A stretch of 44,504 nt of DNA from a bacterium (GTDB lineage: Bacteria > Bacillota_I > Bacilli_A > RFN20 > CAG-826): contig JAQXNS010000065.1 of the NCBI GenBank assembly GCA_029098125.1, positions 1 to 44,504 of the forward strand, read 5' to 3'. This document shows, piece after piece, positions 25,228 through 44,504 of the stretch; the first letter of the stretch is position 1, and each line of letters opens with the position of its first letter. The notes under the pieces were generated by a model. That model was given only the letters and a program-made list of their open reading frames with translations. It did no database searches and was not told where the DNA came from. The translations under genes and the position numbers were made by a program.

Positions 25228-28200
25228 ATGTTAGATAGAATGATTAGATTCCTTCATAGCATCGGTATAGATGACTATGAAAATTACGATTTAGATTTTG
25301 ATAAAATAACAAAATCTCAATTTTTTGATAATGGTTTTTCTTTTGTTATTAAAAAAGATTCGCCTTGGAATCCTTATCAAGCTGATCATTTTATTAGCGG
25401 ATTAAATAAACTCAAATATCAATATGAAATTCTTTTTATATACAATTGTGATTTTGATGAAAAATCATTAAACGAATTAATTGTTTGGTGGTATTTTAAT
25501 AACGTAAGAAAGGAATTAAAAGCTAATTTTTCTTTTACGAATAATCAAATCAAATATATATTTCAAAATGAACTAGAAAACTTAGAATTTTCAAAAAATA
25601 TCGAGGATTTGCAGGATTTTTTGAATTTTTTAAACTATCCAATTAGTGTTTCTTGCGAATTAAAGCAAGAAAAAAATGAAGAAAATTATGTGTTAGACGA
25701 CTCAAAATTTGACATTAAAAAGATTGAAGAAGAGGCAGAAGTTGAAGCACTAAATTCCCTTAAAGAAACTTATGAAAATCGAGTTTTTGATGAAAGACAA
25801 AAGTTATTATTCAAAAAAGGGGATTATCAACATGTTGACATTTCAGAAATAGATTCAAATAGTGGAAATATTGAATTCCAAGGTTTTATTTTTGAATGTA
25901 CAATAAAAGATACTAGAAAAGGTGGTAAAATAGCATCTGTTGGTGTTGGAAAAAAAGGACACCCTGATGCAATTTATGTAACCTTTATTTCTAATGAAAA
26001 AAATCTAAAAAAAGATGATTTTGAATCTTTGAATGCAATTGGTAAAAATATTTGCGTTAAAGGAAAAGCAGATCTTGATCGTTTTAAACGCAATTTATAT
26101 GTCATGGGTCATTATTTTGAAATTCTACCTGATGATGAACCAAGAAAAGATTTATCAAATGAAAAAAGAGTTGAACTTCATTTACATTCTAAAATGTCTG
26201 AAATGGATGCTGTTTCAACAATTAGTGATTATTGTAAACTTGCTAAGTCAATGGGACATAAAGCAATTGCTATAACAGATCATGGCGTTGCGCAAGCATT
26301 TCCTGAAGCACAACAAGCTGCTAAAAAGTATGGAATAAAAATGCTTTATGGTAGCGAAGTTTATATGATAGAAGATTATTTTACAGGTTGCCTTAATCCT
26401 TCAAACGCTAGAATTAGTGATGCTACCTATGTTTGTTTTGACCTTGAATCCACTGGTTTAAGTATTAAATACGATAGAATTACTGAATTTGGTGCTGTAA
26501 AAATTCAAAATGGTTTAGTTGTTGATAGATTAGATATATTAATTAATCCTGAAATTGAAATTCCAAAACATATTCAAGAAAAGACTCACATAACTACTGA
26601 GATGGTTAAAAATCAACCACCAATTAGAGATGTTATGAATCAAATTCTTGATTTTATCAAAGGCACAATCATTGTTTCTCATAATATTGAATTTGACTAT
26701 GGCATGTTGAATGAAGCTATGGAAAGAGAAGGCTTTGGATCTTTAAATATGCCTGCAATTGATACTTTAGCTATAAGTAGATATGTTTTCCCTGAGAATA
26801 GAGGACATACTCTTGGTCACTTATGTAAACGCCTTGAGATTATGTATGATACAAAAAGTGCACATAGAGCAGATTACGACGCCGAAGTCTTAGCTAATTG
26901 TTGGATGTCATTAAGAACTTCTTTTATTAAAAAAGATCCTAACATAATGCATAAAGATCTTGAAAAATTAGAAATCCCTAATAGTTCATTAAAATATTTA
27001 AGAAGTAGTCATGTTGTTTTAATTGCTAAAAATCATGAAGGTTTAAAGGATTTATATAAAATAATTTCTTATGCACACTGCGATACAATGGGAAGCCAGC
27101 CTCTTGTTCCTAGACATTTAATTTCAGAATACAGGAAAAATTTATTTGTTGGAAGTGCTTGCTTTAATGGCGAAGTTTTTTATTCATCAACAAATAGAAG
27201 CATGAAAAAACTCCATGAAGCAGTCAAATTTTATGATTATATCGAAATACAACCGCTTGAGAATTATTCTTATTTAATAAATATGAATGAGATTCCAAGT
27301 GAAAAAATGTTAAAACAATATATTAAGGATATTATCTCTGTTGCTGAAATGGAAAATAAATTAATCTGTGCAACAGGTGATTGTCATTATTTAAATCCTG
27401 AAGACAAAATTTATAGAGATGTTTATATTTCAAATCAAGCTGTTGGCGGTGTTAATCATCCATTAATGCCATTCTCTCGTTCAAATAGACAAGTTGAGGA
27501 TAATTATTTTTTTGAAAACCCAGATCAACATTTTAGATCTACTGATGAAATGCTTGATTGTTTCAGATGGTTAGGCGAAGAAAAAGCTTACGAATACGTA
27601 ATTAAAAACACAAATATTATTGCTGATGGTTGTGAAGTAATAATCCCTATTCCAGAAAATAAGTTATTCACTCCAACAATTGAAAATTGTGAAAATCTTT
27701 TAAGAGATTTGTGTTTTAATACTGCTAATAATTTATATGGTGATATTAAAAATAGTGATGATAAAGCAAAAAAATTCATTTACGAAAGATTAGAAACCGA
27801 ACTTGATGGTATTATTTCAAATGGTTACTCAGTTATTTATTATATTGCCCATAAATTAGTAAAAAAATCGAACGAAGACGGATTTATCATTGGAAGTAGA
27901 GGATCTGTTGGTTCATCTTTTGCAGCAACAATGGCCGGAATTACTGAAGTCAATCCTCTCCCTCCTCATTATCGTTGTCCTCATTGTAAAAAAGTAATTT
28001 TTTATGAAGGCAATGATATAACAAGTGGATTTGATTTACCTGATATGCTTTGTCCTGAATGTGGAGAGAAAATGATCACTGATGGTCAAAATATTCCTTT
28101 CCAAACATTCTTAGGATTTAAAGCAGAAAAAGTCCCTGATATCGACTTGAATTTTCCTACAGATTATCAAGCAAAAGCTCATTTATATACCAAAGTTTTA

Positions 28201-29601
28201 CTTGGAGCTGATAAAGTTTATCGTGCAGGAACTATTTCAACTGTTCAATTTAAAACTGCATATGGTTATGCAAGAAAATATTTTGAAAAAATGAAAGTCG
28301 ACCCTGACAAAATAAAACCAGCAGTTTTAGCTGAACTTGCTTATGGATGTCAAGAAGTTAAAAGAACTACAGGGCAACATCCAGGTGGTATTGTCGTTAT
28401 TCCTACTGAGTATGATGTTTATGATTTTACACCTGTTCAATATCCAGCTGGTAATGTTGAAGCTGCGTGGAAAACAACTCATTTTGATTTCCATTCAATT
28501 CATGACACTATTTTAAAACTAGATATGCTTGGACATGTTGATCCTCAAGCTTTAAAAATGATGAACGATTTGTCTAAATTTAGTTTGTACAAAATCCCTT
28601 TTAACGACAAAAATGTTATTTCTTTATTTTCAACCGATAAAGCACTTAAACTTGAACACAAATATATGCCGGAAGACAATGGAGCTTTAGGATTACCAGA
28701 ATTTGGTACACCTTTTGTCAGACAAATGTTAAGAGAAACATTACCTAAGTCATTCTCAGATTTATTGATTATTTCAGGTTTATCGCATGGTACAGACGTT
28801 TGGAATAATAATGCACAAAATTTGATTCAAAAGAACATTACAAATTTACGTGGTGTTATTGGATGTCGTGATGATATTATGACTTATTTAATTTCTCATA
28901 ATATCGATGGACATGAAGCATTTGTTATCATGGAAGCAGTTAGAAAAGGTAAACAACTAAAACCTGAATGGGAAGCTCTTATGAGAGAACATAATGTTCC
29001 TGATTATTACATCGATTCATGTAATAAAATTAAATACTTGTTCCCTAAAGGACATGCTTGTGCTTATGTTATGATGGCTTTAAGGGTTGGTTATTACAAA
29101 ATTTATTATCCTTTAGAGTTTTATGCAACATTCTTCACTTTAAGATGTGAGCAATATGACATTGAATCTATGCTTAAAGGTAGTGAGGGAATTTTTAATA
29201 AATTACAAGAATATTCAAATAGAAGAAAGTCTAACAATCCTGAGAAAGCTTTAAGTCCAAAAGAAGAAGAAATTGAAAAAACACTTCAAGTTGCTCTAGA
29301 AATGACTGAAAGAGGATATAAATTTGTAAATATTGATATCGAAAAGAGCGATGCAACTAATTTTATAGTTGATAAAGAAAGAAAAGCGTTGATTCCTCCA
29401 TTTAAAGTATTAGATGGCTTTGGTGAAAAAGGTGGAGAAGCTTTAATTCAAGCGAGAAACGAAAAACCATTTATATCTCAAGAAGATCTTCTTCAAAGAG
29501 GAAAAATTTCAAAAACTAATCTAAAACAACTAAAGGAATTAGGTGTTTTAGATTCGTTAACTGAATCAAATCAACTTTCCTTATTTGATTTTATGATATA
29601 A
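25228..29601 (+). CDS. polC: DNA polymerase III PolC-type alpha subunit
   Basis: 1457 aa. PHP domain (HLHSKMSEMDA), inserted DEDD exonuclease (FDLESTGL ... HRADYDA), zinc module CPHC...CPEC and a polymerase core. Confidence 0.97.
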   Translation: MLDRMIRFLHSIGIDDYENYDLDFDKITKSQFFDNGFSFVIKKDSPWNPYQADHFISGLNKLKYQYEILFIYNCDFDEKSLNELIVWWYFNNVRKELKANFSFTNNQIKYIFQNELENLEFSKNIEDLQDFLNFLNYPISVSCELKQEKNEENYVLDDSKFDIKKIEEEAEVEALNSLKETYENRVFDERQKLLFKKGDYQHVDISEIDSNSGNIEFQGFIFECTIKDTRKGGKIASVGVGKKGHPDAIYVTFISNEKNLKKDDFESLNAIGKNICVKGKADLDRFKRNLYVMGHYFEILPDDEPRKDLSNEKRVELHLHSKMSEMDAVSTISDYCKLAKSMGHKAIAITDHGVAQAFPEAQQAAKKYGIKMLYGSEVYMIEDYFTGCLNPSNARISDATYVCFDLESTGLSIKYDRITEFGAVKIQNGLVVDRLDILINPEIEIPKHIQEKTHITTEMVKNQPPIRDVMNQILDFIKGTIIVSHNIEFDYGMLNEAMEREGFGSLNMPAIDTLAISRYVFPENRGHTLGHLCKRLEIMYDTKSAHRADYDAEVLANCWMSLRTSFIKKDPNIMHKDLEKLEIPNSSLKYLRSSHVVLIAKNHEGLKDLYKIISYAHCDTMGSQPLVPRHLISEYRKNLFVGSACFNGEVFYSSTNRSMKKLHEAVKFYDYIEIQPLENYSYLINMNEIPSEKMLKQYIKDIISVAEMENKLICATGDCHYLNPEDKIYRDVYISNQAVGGVNHPLMPFSRSNRQVEDNYFFENPDQHFRSTDEMLDCFRWLGEEKAYEYVIKNTNIIADGCEVIIPIPENKLFTPTIENCENLLRDLCFNTANNLYGDIKNSDDKAKKFIYERLETELDGIISNGYSVIYYIAHKLVKKSNEDGFIIGSRGSVGSSFAATMAGITEVNPLPPHYRCPHCKKVIFYEGNDITSGFDLPDMLCPECGEKMITDGQNIPFQTFLGFKAEKVPDIDLNFPTDYQAKAHLYTKVLLGADKVYRAGTISTVQFKTAYGYARKYFEKMKVDPDKIKPAVLAELAYGCQEVKRTTGQHPGGIVVIPTEYDVYDFTPVQYPAGNVEAAWKTTHFDFHSIHDTILKLDMLGHVDPQALKMMNDLSKFSLYKIPFNDKNVISLFSTDKALKLEHKYMPEDNGALGLPEFGTPFVRQMLRETLPKSFSDLLIISGLSHGTDVWNNNAQNLIQKNITNLRGVIGCRDDIMTYLISHNIDGHEAFVIMEAVRKGKQLKPEWEALMREHNVPDYYIDSCNKIKYLFPKGHACAYVMMALRVGYYKIYYPLEFYATFFTLRCEQYDIESMLKGSEGIFNKLQEYSNRRKSNNPEKALSPKEEEIEKTLQVALEMTERGYKFVNIDIEKSDATNFIVDKERKALIPPFKVLDGFGEKGGEALIQARNEKPFISQEDLLQRGKISKTNLKQLKELGVLDSLTESNQLSLFDFMI

Positions 29602-35996: not shown

Positions 35997-37155
35997 CTAA
36001 ATCACCTCCATTTCTAAAGTTAAGATTTAATGAAACTTTAAAATTTATGAAGAATTCACTAGCGATTAAAGCAAAGAAAAATACACCAATTAAAATTGAA
36101 CTTACAGATGAAGAATAATTTAAAGCAGAAGCAGCGTTTTCACTACCTTTTGTGATAAAAGCGACTAAAAAAGAATAAATTGCAATTTCACCAGTATTAA
36201 AATGGCCTAACCATGAAATTAAAACACCTGTAAAGCCTTGTCCATTTACCAAAGTTTGATTAATTGTGTGCGAACCAGCTGCAACTAATAACCAGCCGCA
36301 AATTCCAGATAATGCTCCAACAATAATCATTGTTCTAATGGTTACTTTATTAATACTGATTCCAATATATCTAGCTGTGTTTCTTGAACCACCTAAAACA
36401 TTAATTTCGTAGCCTTGTTTAAAATACTTAAGGTATAAAGTTAAAATAAGAGCAACAATAATTACGATAATTATTCCGATTACATAATCGTATGATTTTC
36501 CATCAAACATTGTCACTTTTGGAATCCAACCTAAATGTGTATCTTCATTAACAATTCCGATGGCAGTTTTACCAGTTGCTCTCCATTCATAAGAAAAGAA
36601 ACCGACAATAGCCATTGCGATATAGTTCATCATTAATGTAAATAATGTTTCATTTGTATTAAATAAACATTTAAAAATTGCAGGAATTACTGACCAAATT
36701 GCTGCAAAAATCATCCCAAATAATAACATTAGAGTTAAAACAGCAAAATTATTGTTTATTGTCGGAGCCATAAATTTCATTACAATTAATGATCCAAATG
36801 CTCCCATCAATATTTGACCTTCGCCTCCAATATTCCAAAACTTCATTTTAAATGCTGGAGTTACTGAAAGAGTTATTATTAATAAAATAGAGGTAGACCA
36901 GAGTAAATTTATGGTTTTTTGTAATGAAAAGGAAGTGACGCCTCTTTTTGTTGATGCAAAATTGTTAACAAAAACATTTTGCAAAAAAGTGAAAAAACTA
37001 CCTTCTGCAATAATATTTGATATTAAAGCGCATAAAATTAAAGCAAAAATTATACTTGAAATTTTGATTAGGATTTTCTTCCATGTTTCAAGATTTGCTT
37101 TTCTACTGATTCGAATTAATGGTTTACGTTCTTTTTTGAATAATTTAATTTCCAT
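35983..37155 (-). CDS. ABC nucleoside/simple-sugar transporter permease (NupP/RnsC-like)
   Basis: 390 aa polytopic membrane protein. It overlaps the downstream permease by 14 nt. Confidence 0.8.
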   Translation of the reverse strand: MEIKLFKKERKPLIRISRKANLETWKKILIKISSIIFALILCALISNIIAEGSFFTFLQNVFVNNFASTKRGVTSFSLQKTINLLWSTSILLIITLSVTPAFKMKFWNIGGEGQILMGAFGSLIVMKFMAPTINNNFAVLTLMLLFGMIFAAIWSVIPAIFKCLFNTNETLFTLMMNYIAMAIVGFFSYEWRATGKTAIGIVNEDTHLGWIPKVTMFDGKSYDYVIGIIIVIIVALILTLYLKYFKQGYEINVLGGSRNTARYIGISINKVTIRTMIIVGALSGICGWLLVAAGSHTINQTLVNGQGFTGVLISWLGHFNTGEIAIYSFLVAFITKGSENAASALNYSSSVSSILIGVFFFALIASEFFINFKVSLNLNFRNGGDLDGHN

Positions 37156-38719
37156 TTTCTTCGTTCTCCGTGTTTTTTGTCATTAAAAGACCAATTTCTT
37201 CTTTTGTTGTTGTTCTTGCATCAACAATTCCAGTGATTTTACCCGCACATAAAACAGCAATTTTATCGCAAAGAGCTAGAATAACATCTAAATCTTCACC
37301 AACATAAATAACTGCAGCATCATTATTCTTTTGCTCGTTTAATAAGTTATATATTAAATAAGAAGAATTTATATCAAGACCTCTTACAGGGTATGCAGCC
37401 ATTAATACTTTTGGTTGCGAAGCAATTTCACGCCCAACAAGAACTTTTTGAACGTTACCTCCAGATAATTTGCTTATCTGTGTTTTGATGTTTGGAGTAA
37501 CAACTTCAAGCTCTTCAACGATGTTTTTCGTTAAATTTGTTGGATTTTTCTTATCTGTAGTCAAAAAGTGTTTATTTGAGTTGTTTCTATATGAACGAAG
37601 CATAACATTATCAACAAGATTAAAATCTCCAACTAAACCCATTCCTAAACGATCTTCTGGAACGAATGATAATGAAATACCTAAATTTCTGATTTTTGTT
37701 GGTGAAAGCTTTTTCAAATCGACTTCTTCGTTTTTGTCGTTAATAAAACATATTTCACCATCTTCAATCTTATTTAAACCCGCAATTGTTTCAAGTAATT
37801 CCTTTTGTCCGCTTCCAGCAATACCTGCAATTCCAAGTATTTCATGGCTTCTGACATTTAAATTTATATTGCTAAGGACAACTCTTTCTTCGTTTCTAAC
37901 GGTTAAATTTTTAATCAATAGTTTGATTTGTGGGTTTTTTACTTCGCTTCTTTCAATATTAAGGTCGATTTTTTTACCAACCATCATTTCAGTAAGTTCA
38001 TTCTCATTTGTTTTTGATGTTTCAACAGTGCCAATTAATTCACCCTTTCTTAAAACAGCGACTTTATCTGAAATTTCCATAACTTCATTTAACTTATGAG
38101 TAATAATTATTATGGTTTTACCAGCTTCTTTCATGTTTCTTAGAACTTTGAAAAGACGTTTTGTTTCTTGAGGAGTTAAAACAGCAGTTGGTTCATCAAG
38201 AATCAAGATATCAACACCTCTAAATAGTACTTTAAGAATTTCTAGGGTTTGTTTTTCAGAAATAGCCATGTTGTAGACTTTTTTTCTTGGGTTGATATTG
38301 AATTCAAAAGCAGCAGAAATTTCATTCATTCTATTTTCTGCTTCTTTTAAGTTAAATTTTGCCTTAGGATTACCTAAAAGTTCTCTGTATTCGTTTTTAG
38401 ACAATCCTAAAACAACATTTTCTACCGCAGTAAAAACATCAATCAATTTATAATGTTGATGAATCATTCCAATTTTATATTTATATGCTTCTTTTGGAGA
38501 ATTAATTTTTGCTTTTTCTCCATTAACAAAAATTTCACCATTATCTGGAAAATAAATACCAGCGATTACATTCATTAAGCTAGTTTTTCCAGATCCATTT
38601 TCACCTAATAATGCAAGAATTTCACCTTTTTCTAACGCTAATGAAATATCGTTTAAAGCAATGACATCACCAAATTTCTTTGTTATATTTTTTACTTCAA
38701 GAGTTATATTTTTATTCAT
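37145..38719 (-). CDS. ABC transporter ATP-binding protein, duplicated ATPase (NupO/RnsB-like)
   Basis: Two NBDs (GENGSGKTS Walker A; LSGG signatures SEKQ/LSGGNVQK; LILDEPT Walker B). Start set at the ATG at 38719 (MNKNITLEV) behind GGAGG. The 15-codon upstream extension in the track runs through the terminator-like hairpin. Confidence 0.9.
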   Translation of the reverse strand: MNKNITLEVKNITKKFGDVIALNDISLALEKGEILALLGENGSGKTSLMNVIAGIYFPDNGEIFVNGEKAKINSPKEAYKYKIGMIHQHYKLIDVFTAVENVVLGLSKNEYRELLGNPKAKFNLKEAENRMNEISAAFEFNINPRKKVYNMAISEKQTLEILKVLFRGVDILILDEPTAVLTPQETKRLFKVLRNMKEAGKTIIIITHKLNEVMEISDKVAVLRKGELIGTVETSKTNENELTEMMVGKKIDLNIERSEVKNPQIKLLIKNLTVRNEERVVLSNINLNVRSHEILGIAGIAGSGQKELLETIAGLNKIEDGEICFINDKNEEVDLKKLSPTKIRNLGISLSFVPEDRLGMGLVGDFNLVDNVMLRSYRNNSNKHFLTTDKKNPTNLTKNIVEELEVVTPNIKTQISKLSGGNVQKVLVGREIASQPKVLMAAYPVRGLDINSSYLIYNLLNEQKNNDAAVIYVGEDLDVILALCDKIAVLCAGKITGIVDARTTTKEEIGLLMTKNTENEENGN

Positions 38720-38738
38720 AAATCCTCCAAAGAAAATT

Positions 38739-38773
38739 GCGGGATTTTTTAAAAAACCCCGCAAAACTCAACT
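38739..38773 (-). repeat. copy 4 of the repeated motif, here half of an intercistronic hairpin
   Basis: AAAAAACCCCGCAAAACTCAACT (38751-38773) starts 2 nt after the lipoprotein stop codon. GCGGG-ATTTTTTAAAAAAC-CCCGC (38739-38762) forms a stem followed, on the minus strand, by AATTTTCTTT. Confidence 0.85.
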
Positions 38774-38775
38774 AT

Positions 38776-39996
38776 TTAGTTAGAAATTGAAGTGATTCCA
38801 TCAATGATGACATCGAAAGAAGGAGCGCTTCTATAGTATGATTCATGGTAATAACCATCTTTAACAAATTCAGTTCCTTCTGGATAATTATATGTATATT
38901 GTTTGTTTGGAGACATATTTTCATTTGTTGGAGTTTCACCATTATTTACTGTGAATTTTGTTGTATCGAAAACATGTAATTCGCCAGAATTTAATTTATC
39001 TTTTGCTGTTGTAACAAGTGTTTTTGCTTCTTCGCTGACGTGTTTTCCATATTCTGTAATTTTTACTGATCCACCTTTAACTGTTCCAACATAATCAGTC
39101 TCAATTGCTTTTCCATTTTGAACACAATCAATAATGTGTTTGTAATATGGAGCCCAGTCAATTTTTGAAGAGACAAGATAGGTATCTGGGCATTGTTGAG
39201 CAGTTGATCCATTATATGTAACATTTGGAACGCCTTTTTCTTCACAAGCATTTGGAGCGCCGTATGAATCAGCGTGTTGAGAAATTAATTTACAACCGTC
39301 ATCGATTAATTGTTTTGCTGTGTTGTTTTCAGCAGTGTAATCGTACCAAGAATTTGTGTATCTAACTTCCATTGTGACACTTGGAACAACTGATTTTGCG
39401 CCAAGATAGAATGATGTGAAACCAGAAATTACTTCAGCATATGGGTGTGCACCAACATATCCAATTTTTGCTTCTTCAGCAGTATATTTACTTGCTTCAA
39501 TGTCTTCTTTCATTTTTTGTCCAGCAACAATACCTGCAAGATATCTACCTTCATATATTGAAGCGAAAGCATTATGATAATTTTTGACTGGATTTGTTTC
39601 CCTTGTATTAACTTCATTTGCTCTTGTTCCTGTAGCGTGACAGAATTCAACTTCAGGATAAGCTTCAGCAGCAGCGATCATGTAATCTTCGTGTCCGAAT
39701 GAATCTGCAAAAACAATATCACATCCTTCTTCTGCAAGTTGTTTTGCTGTTCTTTCGCATTCATCAGATTCAGGAATATTTTCTTTAACAATTAATTCAA
39801 TGCCAAGTTCATTCTTTGTTTCGATCATTGCATCGTAGAAGTTTTTATCATAAGTTGAACTTGCTGATGGATGTAATAATATTAAACCAACTTTTATTGA
39901 TCCATTATTTGAGCCACCATTGCCACCACATGCAGTTAAAGCACCAACTACGACAGGTAAAGCTGCTAAAGATACTAAACGAGAAAACTTTTTCAT
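38776..39996 (-). CDS. BMP-family lipoprotein, nucleoside-binding (NupN/PnrA/TmpC-like)
   Basis: Signal peptide with lipobox LTAC-GG; 406 aa. It is the first gene of the ABC operon and carries BMP-family motifs (GFTSFYLGA, ISQHADS). Confidence 0.85.
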   Translation of the reverse strand: MKKFSRLVSLAALPVVVGALTACGGNGGSNNGSIKVGLILLHPSASSTYDKNFYDAMIETKNELGIELIVKENIPESDECERTAKQLAEEGCDIVFADSFGHEDYMIAAAEAYPEVEFCHATGTRANEVNTRETNPVKNYHNAFASIYEGRYLAGIVAGQKMKEDIEASKYTAEEAKIGYVGAHPYAEVISGFTSFYLGAKSVVPSVTMEVRYTNSWYDYTAENNTAKQLIDDGCKLISQHADSYGAPNACEEKGVPNVTYNGSTAQQCPDTYLVSSKIDWAPYYKHIIDCVQNGKAIETDYVGTVKGGSVKITEYGKHVSEEAKTLVTTAKDKLNSGELHVFDTTKFTVNNGETPTNENMSPNKQYTYNYPEGTEFVKDGYYHESYYRSAPSFDVIIDGITSISN

Positions 39997-40059: not shown

Positions 40060-40170
40060 AAAAAAACATACTACAAGAATTATGTATGTCTTTTAGAATT
40101 TAATCCGTAGTGCTAGATTACGGTCCAGCGTAGAGACTTCCTACCAATTAAGGAATTATACGAAATCAAT
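40060..40170 (-). promoter_or_regulatory. purine riboswitch (guanine class) with terminator expression platform
   Basis: Minus-strand RNA UCGUAUAAUUCCUUAAUUGGUAGGAAGUCUCUACGCUGGACCGUAAUCUAGCACUACGGA matches the xpt G-box architecture: P1, J1/2 UAAU, P2 with a GG loop, J2/3 GUCUCUAC, P3 with a CC loop, and J3/1 ACU with C at the specificity position. It is followed by an ACAUAC...GUAUGU stem plus U7 (40060-40090). Confidence 0.85.
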
Positions 40171-40171
40171 C

Positions 40172-40219
40172 TTCCGATTGACGGAATTATTATAAATCAA
40201 GTTGGTTATTGGTTTCCAA
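40172..40219 (-). promoter_or_regulatory. candidate promoter (TTGGAA-N19-TATAAT) plus TTCCG-N5-CGGAA palindrome at the predicted transcription start site (TSS)
   Basis: On the minus strand, TATAAT lies at 40189-40194 and TTGGAA at 40214-40219, an over-long spacer. The perfect palindrome TTCCGATTGACGGAA at 40172-40186 overlaps the expected TSS. Confidence 0.3.
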
Positions 40220-40391: not shown

Positions 40392-40419
40392 AAAGCGTCG
40401 TATTTAGGAGGGGGGTTCT

Positions 40420-41286
40420 ATGAGCAAAAATATAATTGCACAAAAATCTAAAGATCTTATCAAATTTACCCTTAAACATTACAGTTTTAAAGATAAGTTA
40501 GTTTTAGTTATTTATGTATTAATGTCATTTATTGGTAAATGTATATTTTTTATTAAGCCAGTATTTGATGTTGCTGATGACAATTTAGCTAGAATGATTG
40601 TCGAAACGCATTATTTAAATTTTCCAATGGTATTTAAAGGAATTAAAAAAAGATATGGCGAATTACTATTAGTCGATACCATTCGTTCTCTTGAGTCATT
40701 AGCTATTGCTCTAGTTCTTTTTGGCTTACCATTTTTAATCATTTCATTGACACCTAATCCAGCAAATGAACAAACACCTGGTCATTTTATTATCTATGGT
40801 CTTGCAGTTTTGACACTAATTATTTCTTACTTAATTGGTGTTAAATATTGGGCAGTGCCACATATAATTTTAGCAAACTCAAATCTCACAGGTAGTGATG
40901 GAATGTTAATGTCTAAATTAAGTAAAAAGCAATACGGAGGTAAAGTTTTCTTAGCTCGTTTACCTTATTACTTAATGGTGATTCTTTTTATTGGATTATT
41001 TGTTGGAACAATTTTGATTATTCAAAGTATTACAAATTACGATAATGTACTTATTGTTTCTGTTTTTTCAGCTATAGTTCCACTTATTTTGTCACTCCTA
41101 TGGCTTGTTATCTATAGAATTTATATTTCAAAATGCGTAAAATCTTATCTTATTTATCAAGAAGTTATAAAAATTTCAAAACCTATCGTTGCTAAACAAG
41201 TCAGTGGCGATAAACTTGACTATGTACCATTATTTGATGATGGTGAAATTGATGCTTCAATTTTAAATCAAAAAGGAGGCAAATAA
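40420..41286 (+). CDS. hypothetical polytopic membrane protein (288 aa)
   Basis: Strong RBS and at least 5 hydrophobic helices. No motif I can assign. First gene of a tightly spaced operon. Confidence 0.7.
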   Translation: MSKNIIAQKSKDLIKFTLKHYSFKDKLVLVIYVLMSFIGKCIFFIKPVFDVADDNLARMIVETHYLNFPMVFKGIKKRYGELLLVDTIRSLESLAIALVLFGLPFLIISLTPNPANEQTPGHFIIYGLAVLTLIISYLIGVKYWAVPHIILANSNLTGSDGMLMSKLSKKQYGGKVFLARLPYYLMVILFIGLFVGTILIIQSITNYDNVLIVSVFSAIVPLILSLLWLVIYRIYISKCVKSYLIYQEVIKISKPIVAKQVSGDKLDYVPLFDDGEIDASILNQKGGK

Positions 41287-41287
41287 A

Positions 41288-41890
41288 ATGACAGAATATT
41301 TTTGGTTTGTAATTTTAGCTGCAGTTGTAGTTTTTCTAACTTTTTTAATTGTCCCAATTTTATTTTCAATTAAAGATTTAAAAAGAACTCCTCTTTTACA
41401 TTTTGAAGATAATGGAAATTTAGTTCTTGAAGATAGTGAAGCTGATAAATATTTTTCAAGTGCAAAAATCGAAGATAAAACTTTATCAATGGTTTGCAAA
41501 GAAGACCATGATTTTGATTTAACTTTGATCGTATCTTATGGCAAGAAAAAAACTCTTAAAAATTATTCTTTTAAAGCAAAAAGTAATGACATTTTAACAG
41601 TCACATTAAAAGATAAAGCAACAACTGTTGGTTTTTTATTTAACAAAGTTGACGGTAAAATTATTTCAAAATTTAATAGATACACTACAATTAAATCATT
41701 AATTATTGCTTATTTAATTTCCGGATTAGTTTTTGCTGGTTTTGTTTTTGGATATTCTGTTATTGAAGCAATGGCTTTTTATGAAGATCCATTGATTACA
41801 GTTTTTTATATTCTATCACTTGCTGGAATAGTTGCAGCAATCGCAGGACTATTTTTAACTATGCTATTTGATAGAAAGGTTAGAAATTAG
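41288..41890 (+). CDS. hypothetical membrane protein (200 aa): N-terminal TM, soluble beta-rich domain, two C-terminal TMs
   Basis: AGGAGG RBS. The start lies 1 nt after the upstream stop. Hydrophobic segments are at residues ~5-27 and ~135-195. Confidence 0.7.
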   Translation: MTEYFWFVILAAVVVFLTFLIVPILFSIKDLKRTPLLHFEDNGNLVLEDSEADKYFSSAKIEDKTLSMVCKEDHDFDLTLIVSYGKKKTLKNYSFKAKSNDILTVTLKDKATTVGFLFNKVDGKIISKFNRYTTIKSLIIAYLISGLVFAGFVFGYSVIEAMAFYEDPLITVFYILSLAGIVAAIAGLFLTMLFDRKVRN

Positions 41891-41901
41891 GAGGAATTGT
41901 T

Positions 41902-42675
41902 ATGGTAGAAGTAAAATTAATAGGCCAAATTCCTGTAAAACAAAATTCAGCAAATTCAGATAAATTTGTTGTAAATGGCGCAAGCATTTATGAGGCTCAA
42001 AATGGTGATAAATATGTATTTTTATCTTTAAAAAACCCTCAAAAGTCCCCTATTTTTGGTTTTAGTTTAAATATTAGACAATATGATGCAGCTGGTGCAT
42101 TTATTAAAGAAGGTAGATATTTTGATACTCAAACATATTGTGGTAGAGAACAAACTTACGTCCTTGAAAATCCAATTTCTGTTGAAAAAGAGTGTGAAGC
42201 TTTAGAAATTGCTGTTGTTTCTGTAATTACTTTTGAAGGAAAAATTCATAAATCAGAAATATCTATTCCAACAAGTGAAGAAATGAAACTTGCAAAAATT
42301 AATGCTTCAATTATCAAAGAAGAAAAGAAAGGTGAAGCTAAAGAAGAAGTCGTTTCAAAAGAAGAAAATGTTACTCCAGTTGAAGAAACTAAAGAAGAAA
42401 ATGTTACTCCAGTTGAAGAAAATAAAGCAGAAGATATTTATGATGAAAATGAAGATGATGAATTAGATGAAACACCAAAAAATCATGTCGTTTCGTTAGA
42501 TGACAACACTTATAAGACAATTCCAATTTTACCACAAGTTTTAGGTGCTCTAATTGCTGTTGGATTACTTATCTTTATTTTCCTTGTTATTGCAGCAATT
42601 GCAAATTCATTCCTTGAATATGCTGGATATGACGATTTCAAGGGTTTCTTCCCTGACTTCTGGCTTGGTAAATAG
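41902..42675 (+). CDS. hypothetical tail-anchored protein (257 aa) with an acidic repeat linker
   Basis: AGGAGG RBS. N-terminal domain of about 120 aa, E/K-rich linker containing a duplicated KEENVTPVEE unit, and a single C-terminal TM (LGALIAVGLLIFIFLVIAAIA). Confidence 0.7.
   Translation: MVEVKLIGQIPVKQNSANSDKFVVNGASIYEAQNGDKYVFLSLKNPQKSPIFGFSLNIRQYDAAGAFIKEGRYFDTQTYCGREQTYVLENPISVEKECEALEIAVVSVITFEGKIHKSEISIPTSEEMKLAKINASIIKEEKKGEAKEEVVSKEENVTPVEETKEENVTPVEENKAEDIYDENEDDELDETPKNHVVSLDDNTYKTIPILPQVLGALIAVGLLIFIFLVIAAIANSFLEYAGYDDFKGFFPDFWLGK
42358..42423 (+). repeat. 33-bp tandem duplication (2 units, 1 mismatch) inside the tail-anchored protein gene
   Basis: AAAGAAGAAAATGTTACTCCAGTTGAAGAAACT followed by AAAGAAGAAAATGTTACTCCAGTTGAAGAAAAT. 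Confidence 0.95.
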
Positions 42676-42678
42676 AGT

Positions 42679-43875
42679 ATGAATACAAAATATTTTAGTA
42701 AAGAAAAAAAGTTATTCGAACAAAACAATGACGAAATTAACTATCAATATGTTGGAAATGGTTTGGTAATTGGTTCAAAAACTTCAAAGTTTAAAGTTGT
42801 TGATGATTTCAAAAAAGATGAAGAAGAAGTTTTAAACACACCAGTAATTAAAAATACAAATCAAGATATTTTTTATGCTGAAGAAATCGTCCAAGATGAT
42901 GATTTATATGGCCAAGGTTTTAAAGACAGACTTTTAGATAAAGAAGCACAAAGAAGTTTTGTCGAAATTGGAAAGGATATCGATGAAGCGATTCTTAAAA
43001 ATGGTGTTAAAACAAATATTGGTTTTGAGTTAATTTCAAGCATGCAATTTTCTAGAATTATGATGATTGATTATTTAGAAAATAGTCTTGAAATCATGAA
43101 ACCAATTTTAAAAACGCTAAATTCCTTTTCCTTTATATATAATAAGAATGAAATTGATGAAATTAATCATTCTCAAAAATTATTAAGTGTTTTTGAATAC
43201 GCAAATAAAAATAAAAGTATCCCTGTTTATATTTTCTTAAATAAGTTTGAAGCAGAGAAAATTTTTGATTTCCTTAAAGCTTTTTATGCTTATTTTGACA
43301 ATCCTGATGGCGATAATTATATAAATACTTTTGGAAAATTAAATTACATTCCTCATAATTTATATTTTATTGTTAGCTTAGATAAAAATGAATTTGCATA
43401 TAATATCAAGAGAAAATTACTTCGTTATATTTCAAAAATTCATTTTAAAGCTGAACTTGTTGAAGAAAAACAAAAATATTCTTTACAAACTATCTCTCTT
43501 GAAGAATTAGCTTTAAGCTTAAAAGAAGTTGGTGATAGTTTTGCTTTAAATGATGATTTATGGAAGAAAGTTGATGGACTTGTTGACTTAATTAGCAAAA
43601 CTAATGGTTATTATATCCATAATAAAATTGAAGTTAGACTTGAAAACTATATGGTTGCTTATAGTGGAAAAATTAGCGATAGCTATGAATTATTAGATAT
43701 AACACTTGCAAATAATATTGCTCATGAAGCATTTATTACAAAAGATCCAAGTCTTTATCAAGATAAAATTGACATTGAAGCTTTTATTAATAACTCATTT
43801 GGCTTTGATAGAATGGAAAATGTTCGTAAAGAATTTAATGAATATCTACATTTTGCTCTTAAGGAGGTCAAATAA
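42679..43875 (+). CDS. hypothetical 398-aa protein; apparent degenerate McrB-like AAA+ domain (pseudo-NTPase)
   Basis: GLVIGSKTS occupies the place of a P-loop. PVYIFLNKFEAEKIFDFLKAFYAYFD ... YIPHNLYFIVSLDKNE ... KLLRYISKIHF parallels E. coli McrB YIFIIDEINRANLSKVFGEVMMLME ... YVPENVYIIGLMNTAD ... ALRRRFSF, but with the DE of Walker B replaced by NK. Confidence 0.4.
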   Translation: MNTKYFSKEKKLFEQNNDEINYQYVGNGLVIGSKTSKFKVVDDFKKDEEEVLNTPVIKNTNQDIFYAEEIVQDDDLYGQGFKDRLLDKEAQRSFVEIGKDIDEAILKNGVKTNIGFELISSMQFSRIMMIDYLENSLEIMKPILKTLNSFSFIYNKNEIDEINHSQKLLSVFEYANKNKSIPVYIFLNKFEAEKIFDFLKAFYAYFDNPDGDNYINTFGKLNYIPHNLYFIVSLDKNEFAYNIKRKLLRYISKIHFKAELVEEKQKYSLQTISLEELALSLKEVGDSFALNDDLWKKVDGLVDLISKTNGYYIHNKIEVRLENYMVAYSGKISDSYELLDITLANNIAHEAFITKDPSLYQDKIDIEAFINNSFGFDRMENVRKEFNEYLHFALKEVK

Positions 43876-44504
43876 TGATGAATTTTACAATATTTGAAAA
43901 CGAGACAACAGGAAGAGAATCATTTGTAGATCTTTTCACCTCCAACATTGCAATTATTATCTATATTATTTTTATTGCTCTTGCAATTATAGGTATTGCA
44001 GTTCTTTTTATTGTAAACGAATCATTAACTAACGAAAAAATTCAAAAAATCAATACTGATTCAACTGTAATTCTTGATAAAAACGGAAGAAGAATTCGCC
44101 CTAATGGTGAAAATGAAGAAAAAAGTGAAGTTGAAGAAGTCGGATTTGGCAAAAAGACAAAAAAATCAAATCTAGATCGTTTCCAAAAATTATCACTTTT
44201 AGATAAAGAATACCCTCATAAAGAACATATTCAATCAACTGAAGATTTAACACTTGAATATATTGCTCGTAGATTCCGTTCTTTTGCAAGCCACATTCAA
44301 GGCAACCCACTTTATTATTCAATTGATGATATTAGAAGATTTATTGCATCAATGGGCGTAAGCAAAATCATGATATTACAAGGTATGTCAGGAACAGGTA
44401 AAACATCTTTACCAGTTGCTTGGGGAAAATTTACAAATGTTCAAACAACTGTTGTTCCAGTTCAACCAATGTGGAAAGAAAGAAGCGATTTGATTGGTTA
44501 TTAC
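43875..44504 (+). CDS. membrane-anchored McrB-like AAA+ NTPase, N-terminal 210 aa (truncated by the window end; absent from the ORF track)
   Basis: Hand translation from the ATG at 43875 (AGGAGG 7 nt upstream, TAATG overlap with the previous gene) is open to the last base. It has a TM helix (IAIIIYIIFIALAIIGIAVLFIV). ILQGMSGTGKTSLP...VVPVQPMWKERSDLIGYY parallels McrB LILQGPPGCGKT...VQFHQSYSYEDFIQGY. Confidence 0.6.
   Translation, partial: MMNFTIFENETTGRESFVDLFTSNIAIIIYIIFIALAIIGIAVLFIVNESLTNEKIQKINTDSTVILDKNGRRIRPNGENEEKSEVEEVGFGKKTKKSNLDRFQKLSLLDKEYPHKEHIQSTEDLTLEYIARRFRSFASHIQGNPLYYSIDDIRRFIASMGVSKIMILQGMSGTGKTSLPVAWGKFTNVQTTVVPVQPMWKERSDLIGYY

Follow-up and report, generated by a model that had tools for sequence, protein, structure and literature searches.

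A conserved Bacillota gene cluster with predicted membrane-anchored McrB-family GTPases beside giant surface proteins

The contig JAQXNS010000065.1 (assembly GCA_029098125.1), a stretch of 44,504 nucleotides (nt) that is here called the window over its whole length, comes from a bacterium of the Bacillota and ends in five tightly packed, co-directional genes, P1 to P5. They form the promoter-proximal half of a chromosomal cluster that comprises about ten genes and is conserved among gut Firmicutes. This widespread and uncharacterised system derives from McrBC and is built around guanosine triphosphatases (GTPases) of the NxD branch. The intergenic spacings from P1 to P5 are 1, 11, 3, and -1 nt, with the start codon of P5 overlapping the stop codon of P4 by 1 nt. 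An initial annotation of the window had described this packing together with an unusually strong ribosome-binding site; its gaps between the genes were reproduced exactly, and the Shine-Dalgarno sequence AGGAGGGGGG is present 4 nt before the P1 ATG. The term 'five-gene operon' used there falls short in number, as the operon continues in a same-species contig with at least five more genes in the same direction. Hydropathy analysis also agreed with the membrane layouts given for the five products: five transmembrane (TM) segments in P1; a TM segment, a domain, and two further TM segments in P2; a tail anchor in P3; no TM segment in P4; and one N-terminal TM segment in P5.

The continuation beyond the window was read from a 50.8-kb contig (locus L079) of the same species, Ca. 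Onthovivens, which is 98% identical to the window at the nucleotide level and reads through the repeat at which the window ends. Homologues of P3 both led to this contig and identified the organism as a Candidatus Onthovivens species. After P4, L079 carries P5a, X, P5b, P6, D1, and D2, again co-directional and tightly spaced (Table 1). The P5 gene of the window is the first part of P5a, and its full-length product was first rebuilt from a relative and later confirmed in L079.

Table 1. Positions of cluster genes and associated features in the window and in the same-species contig L079 (aa, amino acids; ORF, open reading frame).
Feature	Sequence	Position	Strand	Description
P1	window	40420-41286	+	ORF, 288 aa
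P2	window	41288-41890	+	ORF, 200 aa
P3	window	41902-42675	+	ORF, 257 aa
P4	window	42679-43875	+	ORF, 398 aa
P5a, N-terminal part	window	43875-44504, open at window end	+	ORF, N-terminal 210 of 461 aa; full length from L079
Shine-Dalgarno sequence AGGAGGGGGG	window	40406-40415	+	4 nt 5' of P1 ATG; direct sequence reading
33-nt tandem repeat	window	42358-42432	+	2.3 copies, in P3 linker; Tandem Repeats Finder score 136, 95% matches
~1.1-kb direct repeat, start	window	44169-44504	+	common to P5a and P5b; by comparison with L079
Purine riboswitch aptamer RF00167	window	40088-40183	-	50.2 bits against gathering score 37, E=1.5e-7
P5a	L079	11974-13359		461 aa, one TM segment
X	L079	13372-15123		583 aa, between P5a and P5b
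P5b	L079	15101-16588		495 aa, TM hairpin
P6	L079			141 aa, small TM protein
D1	L079			1095 aa, Transglut_core E=3e-17
D2	L079	20343-		cut by locus end

The central component of the cluster is P5. In P5a, a short N-terminus that is predicted to be extracellular is followed by the TM segment (residues 27-45), a low-complexity linker, and the GTPase domain. The Walker A motif GMSGTGKTS (residues 170-178) lies within the window, and the Walker B motif VLDELN and the signature TANNDDS, which belong to the part of P5a past the window, were read from L079. Walker A, Walker B, and the NNDD of the signature are invariant across the family alignment, and the latter two align to DEINRA and MNTAD of McrB. 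Full-length P5 matches the Pfam family AAA_5 (PF07728) with 26.5 bits (cut-off 22), the 210-aa window fragment alone gives no Pfam match, and among solved structures E. coli McrB is the sole relative (E=6e-4). The McrB-like nature of P5, already proposed from the window, is thereby upheld. GTPases of the NxD branch of McrB are defined by the signature motif NxD, usually followed by D or E (PMC11090510). Against a Type I-A CoCoNuT CnuB from the supplement of PMC11090510, P5 shows 41% identity (E=2e-25) across the region from Walker A to Walker B, and its NNDD aligns to NMDE of that protein with no gap. By sequence, P5 is an NxD-branch member of the McrB GTPase family (AAA_5/COG1401); since NNDD can also be read as NxxD, this assignment rests mainly on the similarity to CnuB, which is far stronger than that to E. 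coli McrB. A PADLOC search had been suggested in the initial annotation. Full-length P5 matches the PADLOC defence candidate (PDC) model PDC-M26A (E=1e-41), the window fragment matches PDC-M26A only, and no other cluster protein matches. The match is through the GTPase domain alone and the other PDC-M26 models find nothing in P1-P4, X, P6, D1, or D2, such that PDC-M26 is incomplete here.

The GTPase is present twice per genome locus, in copies 1.7-2 kb apart. Over the C-terminal 355 aa, P5a and P5b have a median identity of 100% (99.9% at the nucleotide level) within 33 genomes, as against ~60% between copies from different genomes. A few genomes have diverged pairs (58-99% identity), and P5a and P5b are therefore considered to be two real genes homogenised by gene conversion. 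The isolate assembly of Haloplasma contractile likewise argues for a real duplication: one contig ends in copy 1, and a separate 2,951-nt contig is exactly the unique segment between the repeats. The N-termini of P5a and P5b consist of one or more TM segments and a 40-80-aa low-complexity linker, with no coiled coil evident, and each copy keeps its own kind of anchor, namely one TM segment in P5a (41/47 sequences) and a two-TM hairpin in P5b (40/41 sequences). Homogenisation of the catalytic parts fits subunits that are interchangeable within one ring, and would represent a clean natural case of concerted evolution, presumably imposed by co-assembly.

The same repeat explains the end of the window. 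In L079, the P5a and P5b copies share 1092 nt at 98.7% identity, and the window's final 336 nt align to either one, with 98% identity to P5a and 96.1% to P5b. Short-read assemblies break at this ~1.1-kb repeat, and so does the window. An identical break occurs in L081, L002, and the H. contractile isolate assembly, and nearly every P5 homologue in the databases is a 'partial' protein from the end of a contig; the repeat accounts for this recurrent truncation of the GTPase gene in public metagenome-assembled genomes. A database artefact was considered for recurrent 354-aa 'proteins' and rejected: they are C-terminal fragments, predicted from a start codon inside the gene where the P5a/P5b repeat has ended a contig.

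Between the two GTPase genes lies X. Of 45 X-family members, 41 match the Pfam family DUF2357 (PF09823) within their first 340 residues at E<=1 (best E=4e-10), a precomputed PF09823 match exists for the Haloplasma X, and the L079 X fits the X-family profile with E=1.7e-123. DUF2357 is the McrC N-terminal domain, which is inserted into the McrB hexamer and activates its GTP hydrolysis (PMC11090510). From approximately residue 340 on, the last ~200-250 aa of X have only coiled-coil-type matches (Apolipoprotein, ZorA tail, and DUF1664). On these family matches, X is an McrC N-terminal domain joined to a long coiled coil. No PD-(D/E)xK or other nuclease family was found in X by Pfam or PADLOC, and none of the cluster proteins scanned matched a PD-(D/E)xK, HEPN, PLD, or other nuclease family. 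It had been suggested initially that a nuclease partner of the McrC kind might lie just past position 44504. Extension of the contig by way of L079 does reveal an McrC-type gene with DUF2357, but a coiled coil replaces the PD-(D/E)xK domain, and the expected nuclease or HEPN domain was not found.

The gene immediately upstream of P5a encodes a cytosolic relative of the GTPase. The P4 and P5 families align over 295 columns with an hhalign probability of 100% (E=1e-41), and P4 has neither the P-loop (Walker A) nor the Walker B DE pair nor the NxD sensor motif. The AlphaFold model of P4 has a mean predicted local distance difference test score (pLDDT) of 81, with 10-residue block means across residues 88-398 that are mostly >90 and at minimum 77. 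Its best Foldseek match in the PDB is McrB (6hz4_E), followed by MCM, NorQ, RavA, and dynein. Sequence and model together point to P4 being an inactive paralogue of P5 with an McrB-like AAA+ fold, and the pseudo-NTPase/NTPase pair recognised in the initial annotation was correct. Within 1.84 billion representative proteins, 92 P4 homologues were found, many of them of ~1100 aa, and relatives of P4 carry an N-terminal TM hairpin. In Clostridial P4, this hairpin joins the protein to a ~670-aa N-terminal region with GH3_C and Fn3-like domains (Pfam; beta-glucosidase/NagZ-like), which is predicted to be cytoplasmic and may be a sugar or muropeptide sensor. Such fused forms were observed in L056 (6565-9930) and about 25 other Clostridial loci.

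P1 to P4 have no family in Pfam, NCBIfam, or PADLOC. For P1 to P3 this is in keeping with the initial annotation, in which nothing was recognised in these proteins; no transporter or secretion family was matched. The TM segments of P2 (residues 7-25, 137-155, and 172-190, by hydropathy) surround a ~110-aa soluble domain that is predicted from the positive-inside rule to be cytoplasmic. Sub-threshold matches of P2 to MFS_1 and DUF2207_C were set aside as noise from TM composition. Profile comparison indicates that Bacilli-type P2 is homologous to a ~235-aa Clostridial family, c3-small (hhalign probability 96.4%, E=1e-9), and c3-small in turn aligns with the soluble domains of Clostridial P3 (90.5%, E=1e-6). 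As judged from the Clostridial families, the soluble domains of P2 and P3 are thus distantly related; a direct hhalign comparison of Bacilli-type P2 and P3 gave 11.7%, which is not significant. The Bacilli-type and Clostridial P3 families match each other with 98.1% probability (E=7e-14). The P1 family (cluster c4) is confined to Bacilli-type loci and a few others, with phmmer matches in L005-L008, and in Clostridial loci its position is taken by an unrelated ~500-aa protein with five TM segments and a weak CvpA-like (Colicin_V) Pfam match.

P3 has a single C-terminal TM segment (residues 216-234, by hydropathy) after an acidic repeat linker. Its AlphaFold model was built from a shallow alignment and is usable for residues 1-112 only; these are all beta (pLDDT 76-93), and the N-terminal domain is modelled as an immunoglobulin (Ig)-like beta-sandwich. 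Foldseek matches of this domain are to generic Ig-like folds at E>=0.02 and were rejected as evidence of homology. In relatives, P3 either ends after the N-terminal domain and TM segment or continues into an extracellular region of 900-2000 aa with BspA-type leucine-rich repeats (LRR_5). Because of these long forms, with the repeats beyond the TM segment, and the positive-inside rule, the N-terminal domain of P3 is predicted to be cytoplasmic. In locus L005, P3 is fused to P4. The tandem repeat in the linker encodes EENVTPVEE[TN]K, and its copy number is polymorphic among Ca. Onthovivens strains: besides the 257-aa form there is a 246-aa allele (P0169) that is short by exactly one 11-aa unit (EENVTPVEETK). 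A further allele has 243 aa. Independent samples contributed more than 60 P3 sequences that are nearly identical. A search with a concatenated P2 and P3 profile gave one new protein among the matches listed, which were saturated with near-identical candidates.

The giant proteins of the cluster, D1, D2, and the long forms of P3, have type-II (N-terminal signal) anchors and very large extracellular regions. Among 43 large proteins scanned, Transglut_core was found in 19, AgI_II_C2 in 19, and LRR_5 in eight, with others carrying YDG or MBG domains; Flg_new domains also occur in the extracellular regions of the cluster surface proteins. The short cytoplasmic N-terminus of D2, MLYxxYxxKIxK, is kept in 24 of 31 D2 proteins, and MLYxxYxxKIxKxA stands before the signal-anchor in 35 of 120 large cluster proteins (e.g., L079 20343-, L056 16879-, and L013 16747-). 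This peptide could be a sorting or recognition tag. The C-terminus of the L079 D1 lacks LPXTG and general Pfam scans contained no sortase family, although neither was searched for specifically.

The arrangement recurs in 73 genome loci in the same order: a protein with five TM segments; a TM, domain, 2-TM protein; an N-terminal domain and TM protein with or without the giant LRR ectodomain; a P4-like protein; P5a; X; P5b; and one or two giants. Components were counted in the 28 loci that have at least 5.5 kb of flank on each side of X. P5a was present in 27 of these, P4-like in 25, P3-like and D1 in 24 each, and P5b and D2 in 23 each. The order P2-P3-P4-P5, and that from P2 to D2 as well, recurs in two classes, Clostridia and Bacilli, and the arrangement is therefore far beyond chance. 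This also answers the question of synteny that the initial annotation had raised, as the genes are syntenic in relatives from both classes. It is accordingly very improbable that P1 to P3 are mere neighbours of an unrelated P4-P5 pair, or ORFs that are not real genes, even though P1 to P3 belong to no known family and P1 has no detectable Clostridial homologue. Apart from the spacings of 1, 11, 3, and -1 nt, homologues of P2 and P3 stand in the same order upstream of P4-P5 in Bacilli and Clostridia, P3 and P4 are fused in L005, P3 is represented by the many near-identical sequences from independent samples, and its N-terminal domain folds confidently in AlphaFold.

Species-representative genomes were scanned for the P5 GTPase, rather than for the whole cluster, and at least 550 matches were confirmed. 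Among the matches listed, nearly all hosts are Clostridia, Bacilli, Anaeroplasma, Izemoplasma, or Acholeplasmatales, and all are Bacillota apart from probable mis-bins. Cultured carriers include Anaerocaecibacter muris CLA-AA-M11 and H. contractile. The loci L016 and L011, binned as 'Bacteroides uniformis' and 'Staphylococcaceae', respectively, have a Firmicutes-type cluster on contigs with a gene content like that of RF39/Clostridia loci; they are likely to be mis-binned contigs and give no evidence of horizontal transfer. No relatives were found in 2.9 million viral contigs. On plasmids, tblastn found no close relatives and only distant NxD systems (<=39% identity) that differ in type, among them a pair of GTPase and DUF2357 proteins from Deinococcus. 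The flanking genes are housekeeping genes that differ between genomes (guaA, hpt-like, nucleoside ABC transporter, and pur genes).

McrBC is the textbook GTP-driven restriction motor, and its relatives have almost always been interpreted as defence systems that target nucleic acids. Like E. coli McrBC (PDB 6hz4, 6ut6, and 7vsr), the cluster encodes an AAA_5 GTPase with Walker A, Walker B, and N/D signature beside a DUF2357 partner, and McrB is the best solved relative for both the P4 model and the P5 sequence. However, the sequence similarity of P5 to McrB is very low (E=6e-4), and the cluster GTPases have TM anchors and a linker instead of an N-terminal domain that binds DNA or modified bases. 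Additionally, the partner X has a coiled coil and no PD-(D/E)xK nuclease, and the cluster has two GTPase genes, a dead paralogue, and seven or more extra membrane or surface proteins. With no nuclease and no DNA-binding domain, it thus fails two hallmarks of Type IV restriction. The CoCoNuT systems (CnuB/CnuC), which are known by prediction only (Bell, Makarova, Wolf, and Koonin, eLife 2024; PMC11090510), share with the cluster the NxD branch, including the 41% identity of P5 to the Type I-A CnuB, and an McrC homologue that has a coiled coil and may be without a nuclease. In contrast to P5, which is TM-anchored and has no evident coiled coil, CoCoNuT GTPases are soluble proteins with long coiled coils, with or without CSD/YTH domains. 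CoCoNuTs also always come with a tandem nuclease (HEPN, PD-(D/E)xK, PLD, or Vsr), none of which was detected in the cluster, and they lack membrane and extracellular components.

Among named classes, CoCoPALM comes closest, and the cluster is possibly identical with it as judged from the two sentences that mention it in PMC11090510, where it is deferred to a forthcoming publication. Its stated hallmarks are an FtsB-like TM and coiled-coil domain on the GTPase and neighbours of the signal-peptidase family (PMC11090510). Both combine an NxD GTPase that has a TM extension with an McrC homologue that carries a coiled coil, and both are connected to assembly at the cell surface. The FtsB-like domain and signal-peptidase neighbours were undetected here at the sensitivity of Pfam and phmmer. 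Compared by description only, the CoCoPALM text omits the pseudo-GTPase, the Ig-domain membrane proteins, the duplicated GTPase, and the transglutaminase/adhesin giants. The supplement text of PMC11090510 lists CoCoNuT types only, and a literature search found no CoCoPALM follow-up and nothing on PDC-M26 or on McrB with transglutaminase beyond PMC11090510. The remark in the initial annotation that the arrangement was unfamiliar from described defence, secretion, or motility systems was nearly right: a possibly identical class has been named, but it is undescribed.

The architecture of the cluster, a membrane-tethered, nuclease-free GTPase machine derived from McrBC beside giant surface proteins, can be regarded as very likely. 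Two further types of system offer parallels. MoxR-DUF58-TgpA/Bat-type operons also co-encode a cytoplasmic AAA+ protein with membrane-anchored transglutaminase-core proteins that face outside, although they have an AAA_3 rather than an McrB-type AAA_5 protein, use ATP rather than GTP, contain VWA/DUF58 instead of DUF2357, and have no giant adhesins. The MoxR-clade folds NorQ and RavA are among the Foldseek matches of the P4 model. The Pseudomonas LapD-LapG-LapA system is a functional analogy, as a cytoplasmic nucleotide input acts through a membrane protein on a transglutaminase-like cysteine protease that governs a giant adhesin. However, no homology was shown. Within the papain-like clan, LapG falls into a different family, c-di-GMP is the signal sensed by LapD, and the Lap system is that of a Gram-negative bacterium, with a link to type I secretion.

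The functional interpretation of the cluster as a whole, that of a GTP-driven membrane machine serving the giant surface proteins rather than cutting nucleic acids, is more tentative and is put forward as a serious possibility that stops just short of being probable. P5a and P5b would together form a single hexameric ring, held by two kinds of anchor at the inner membrane face, and their identical catalytic domains would make them interchangeable subunits. X would insert its DUF2357 finger into the ring and stimulate GTP hydrolysis, as McrC does with McrB, with its coiled coil acting as a dimeriser or stalk. P4, P2, and P3 may be membrane-bound adaptors between the ring and those ends of the giant surface proteins that lie in the cytoplasm, as suggested by the gene neighbourhood and the fusions. 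GTP hydrolysis would be spent on the assembly, insertion, or display of the surface adhesin/transglutaminase proteins, or on their mechanical or allosteric control from the inside out. A bolder version, in which the ring with its two anchors and coiled-coil stalk is an unrecognised membrane motor that moves or gates adhesin 'legs', is improbable. If true, it could mean adhesion switching, surface remodelling, or even movement or contractility in reduced-genome gut Firmicutes, Mollicutes-like bacteria, and H. contractile, and the McrB engine would have a third use beside DNA and (predicted) RNA restriction.

Several observations weigh against the membrane-machine interpretation. The case for ring formation, stimulation by X, and coupling to the surface is built by analogy to E. 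coli McrBC and from the neighbouring genes, and the topologies derive from hydropathy and the positive-inside rule only. The whole NxD branch has so far been read as defence (CoCoNuT), and P5 matches a defence candidate in PADLOC. For X, DUF2357 was assigned from Pfam matches; the L079 X alone gave no DUF2357 match at E<=0.1, a profile of the X N-terminal domain gave no McrC match among PDB sequences, and hhalign comparisons of X with three CoCoNuT CnuC proteins were not significant, picking out only an ENR[FY]L motif. P1 has no detectable Clostridial counterpart, as its hhalign comparison with the Clostridial 5-TM family was negative. Finally, some metagenome-assembled genomes from short reads could overstate how alike P5a and P5b are.

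Two other explanations must be considered. In the one that overlaps with the membrane-machine interpretation, a CoCoPALM-type machine of NxD GTPase and McrC N-terminal domain uses the Ig-domain proteins encoded downstream to build a pilus or fibre, with cross-linking or processing by transglutaminase-like domains. The features given for CoCoPALM, a large clade, in PMC11090510, an NxD GTPase with a TM N-terminal domain, a coiled-coil McrC homologue, no stated nuclease, and a link to surface assembly, have their counterparts in the N-terminal TM segments of P5 and in X. Likewise, the downstream proteins have AgI/II-C2-type domains, as is typical for adhesins and pilins of Gram-positive bacteria, and their transglutaminase cores could form isopeptide links. 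However, Pfam scans of the small membrane proteins in 78 loci and of the large proteins contained no signal-peptidase family, and none was found by phmmer with a SipS sequence and a search for SM.P and GDN motifs, a search of low sensitivity that degenerate SipA-like proteins could escape. DivIC/FtsB was likewise absent from the 25 most frequent Pfam families in 135 scanned sequences, including 77 GTPase N-termini, and the region after the TM segment of P5 is of low complexity rather than a coiled coil. The lack of LPXTG at the end of the L079 D1 and of a sortase in the Pfam scans, within the limits already given for both, also speaks against this explanation, and CoCoPALM itself has been mentioned in two sentences only. 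Overall, this explanation is possible but rather unlikely.

DNA-targeting defence, the frame used in the initial annotation, was not supported: the partners are all membrane or extracellular proteins, no relatives were found among the 2.9 million viral contigs, and plasmid relatives are distant and of other types. A broader version, in which the GTPase senses phage or plasmid invasion and triggers a membrane or surface effector (abortive infection or an adsorption block), is likewise improbable. It would be consistent with the McrBC ancestry, with the interpretation of the rest of the NxD branch as defence, with the variable genomic position of the cluster, and with the PDC-M26A match of P5. 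Many defence systems also use TM effectors. However, PDC systems are putative candidates from 'guilt by embedding', and the match is confined to the shared GTPase domain. No nuclease, HEPN, methyltransferase, or toxin domain was found in the cluster proteins scanned, and the viral and plasmid searches speak against this explanation too. In addition, the ~10-gene synteny with giant adhesin-like proteins across classes is unlike defence islands, and the flanks are housekeeping genes.

In the membrane-machine interpretation, the cluster retains the engine of McrBC, a GTPase ring with a DUF2357 activator, in a nuclease-free and membrane-bound form with a dead subunit, Ig-domain adaptors, and co-inherited giant surface proteins. 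If correct, this would be a new cellular role for the McrB-type AAA+ family, and would give a handle on how adhesive surfaces are built or controlled in poorly known small-genome gut Firmicutes. Carriers of the GTPase include gut Clostridia, RF39/Onthovivens-type Bacilli, Anaeroplasma, Izemoplasma, and Haloplasma, and since some are cultured (A. muris CLA-AA-M11 and H. contractile), the hypothesis is testable.

The surroundings of the cluster in the window are those of an ordinary chromosomal region. The spacer 5' of P1 is 423 nt long, of which ~100 nt are the purine riboswitch of a divergent operon. This riboswitch precedes genes for a Bmp lipoprotein and an ABC transporter (38776-39996 and 37145-38764, both on the minus strand), and the operon is likely to serve purine-nucleoside uptake under riboswitch control. 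A promoter-consensus scan was uninformative in this AT-rich DNA (27% G+C), with 18 promoter-like sites against 28.5 in shuffled sequence, and the single promoter given in the initial annotation is putative. A 1457-aa ORF at 25228-29601 is probably the Gram-positive replicative polymerase PolC, judged from its size and context, and this ORF and the other window ORFs point to chromosomal DNA rather than a mobile element. In H. contractile (L083, 2991-4267), a DUF2716 protein and a Fic-domain protein are located ~6 kb upstream of the cluster and are probably unrelated to it.

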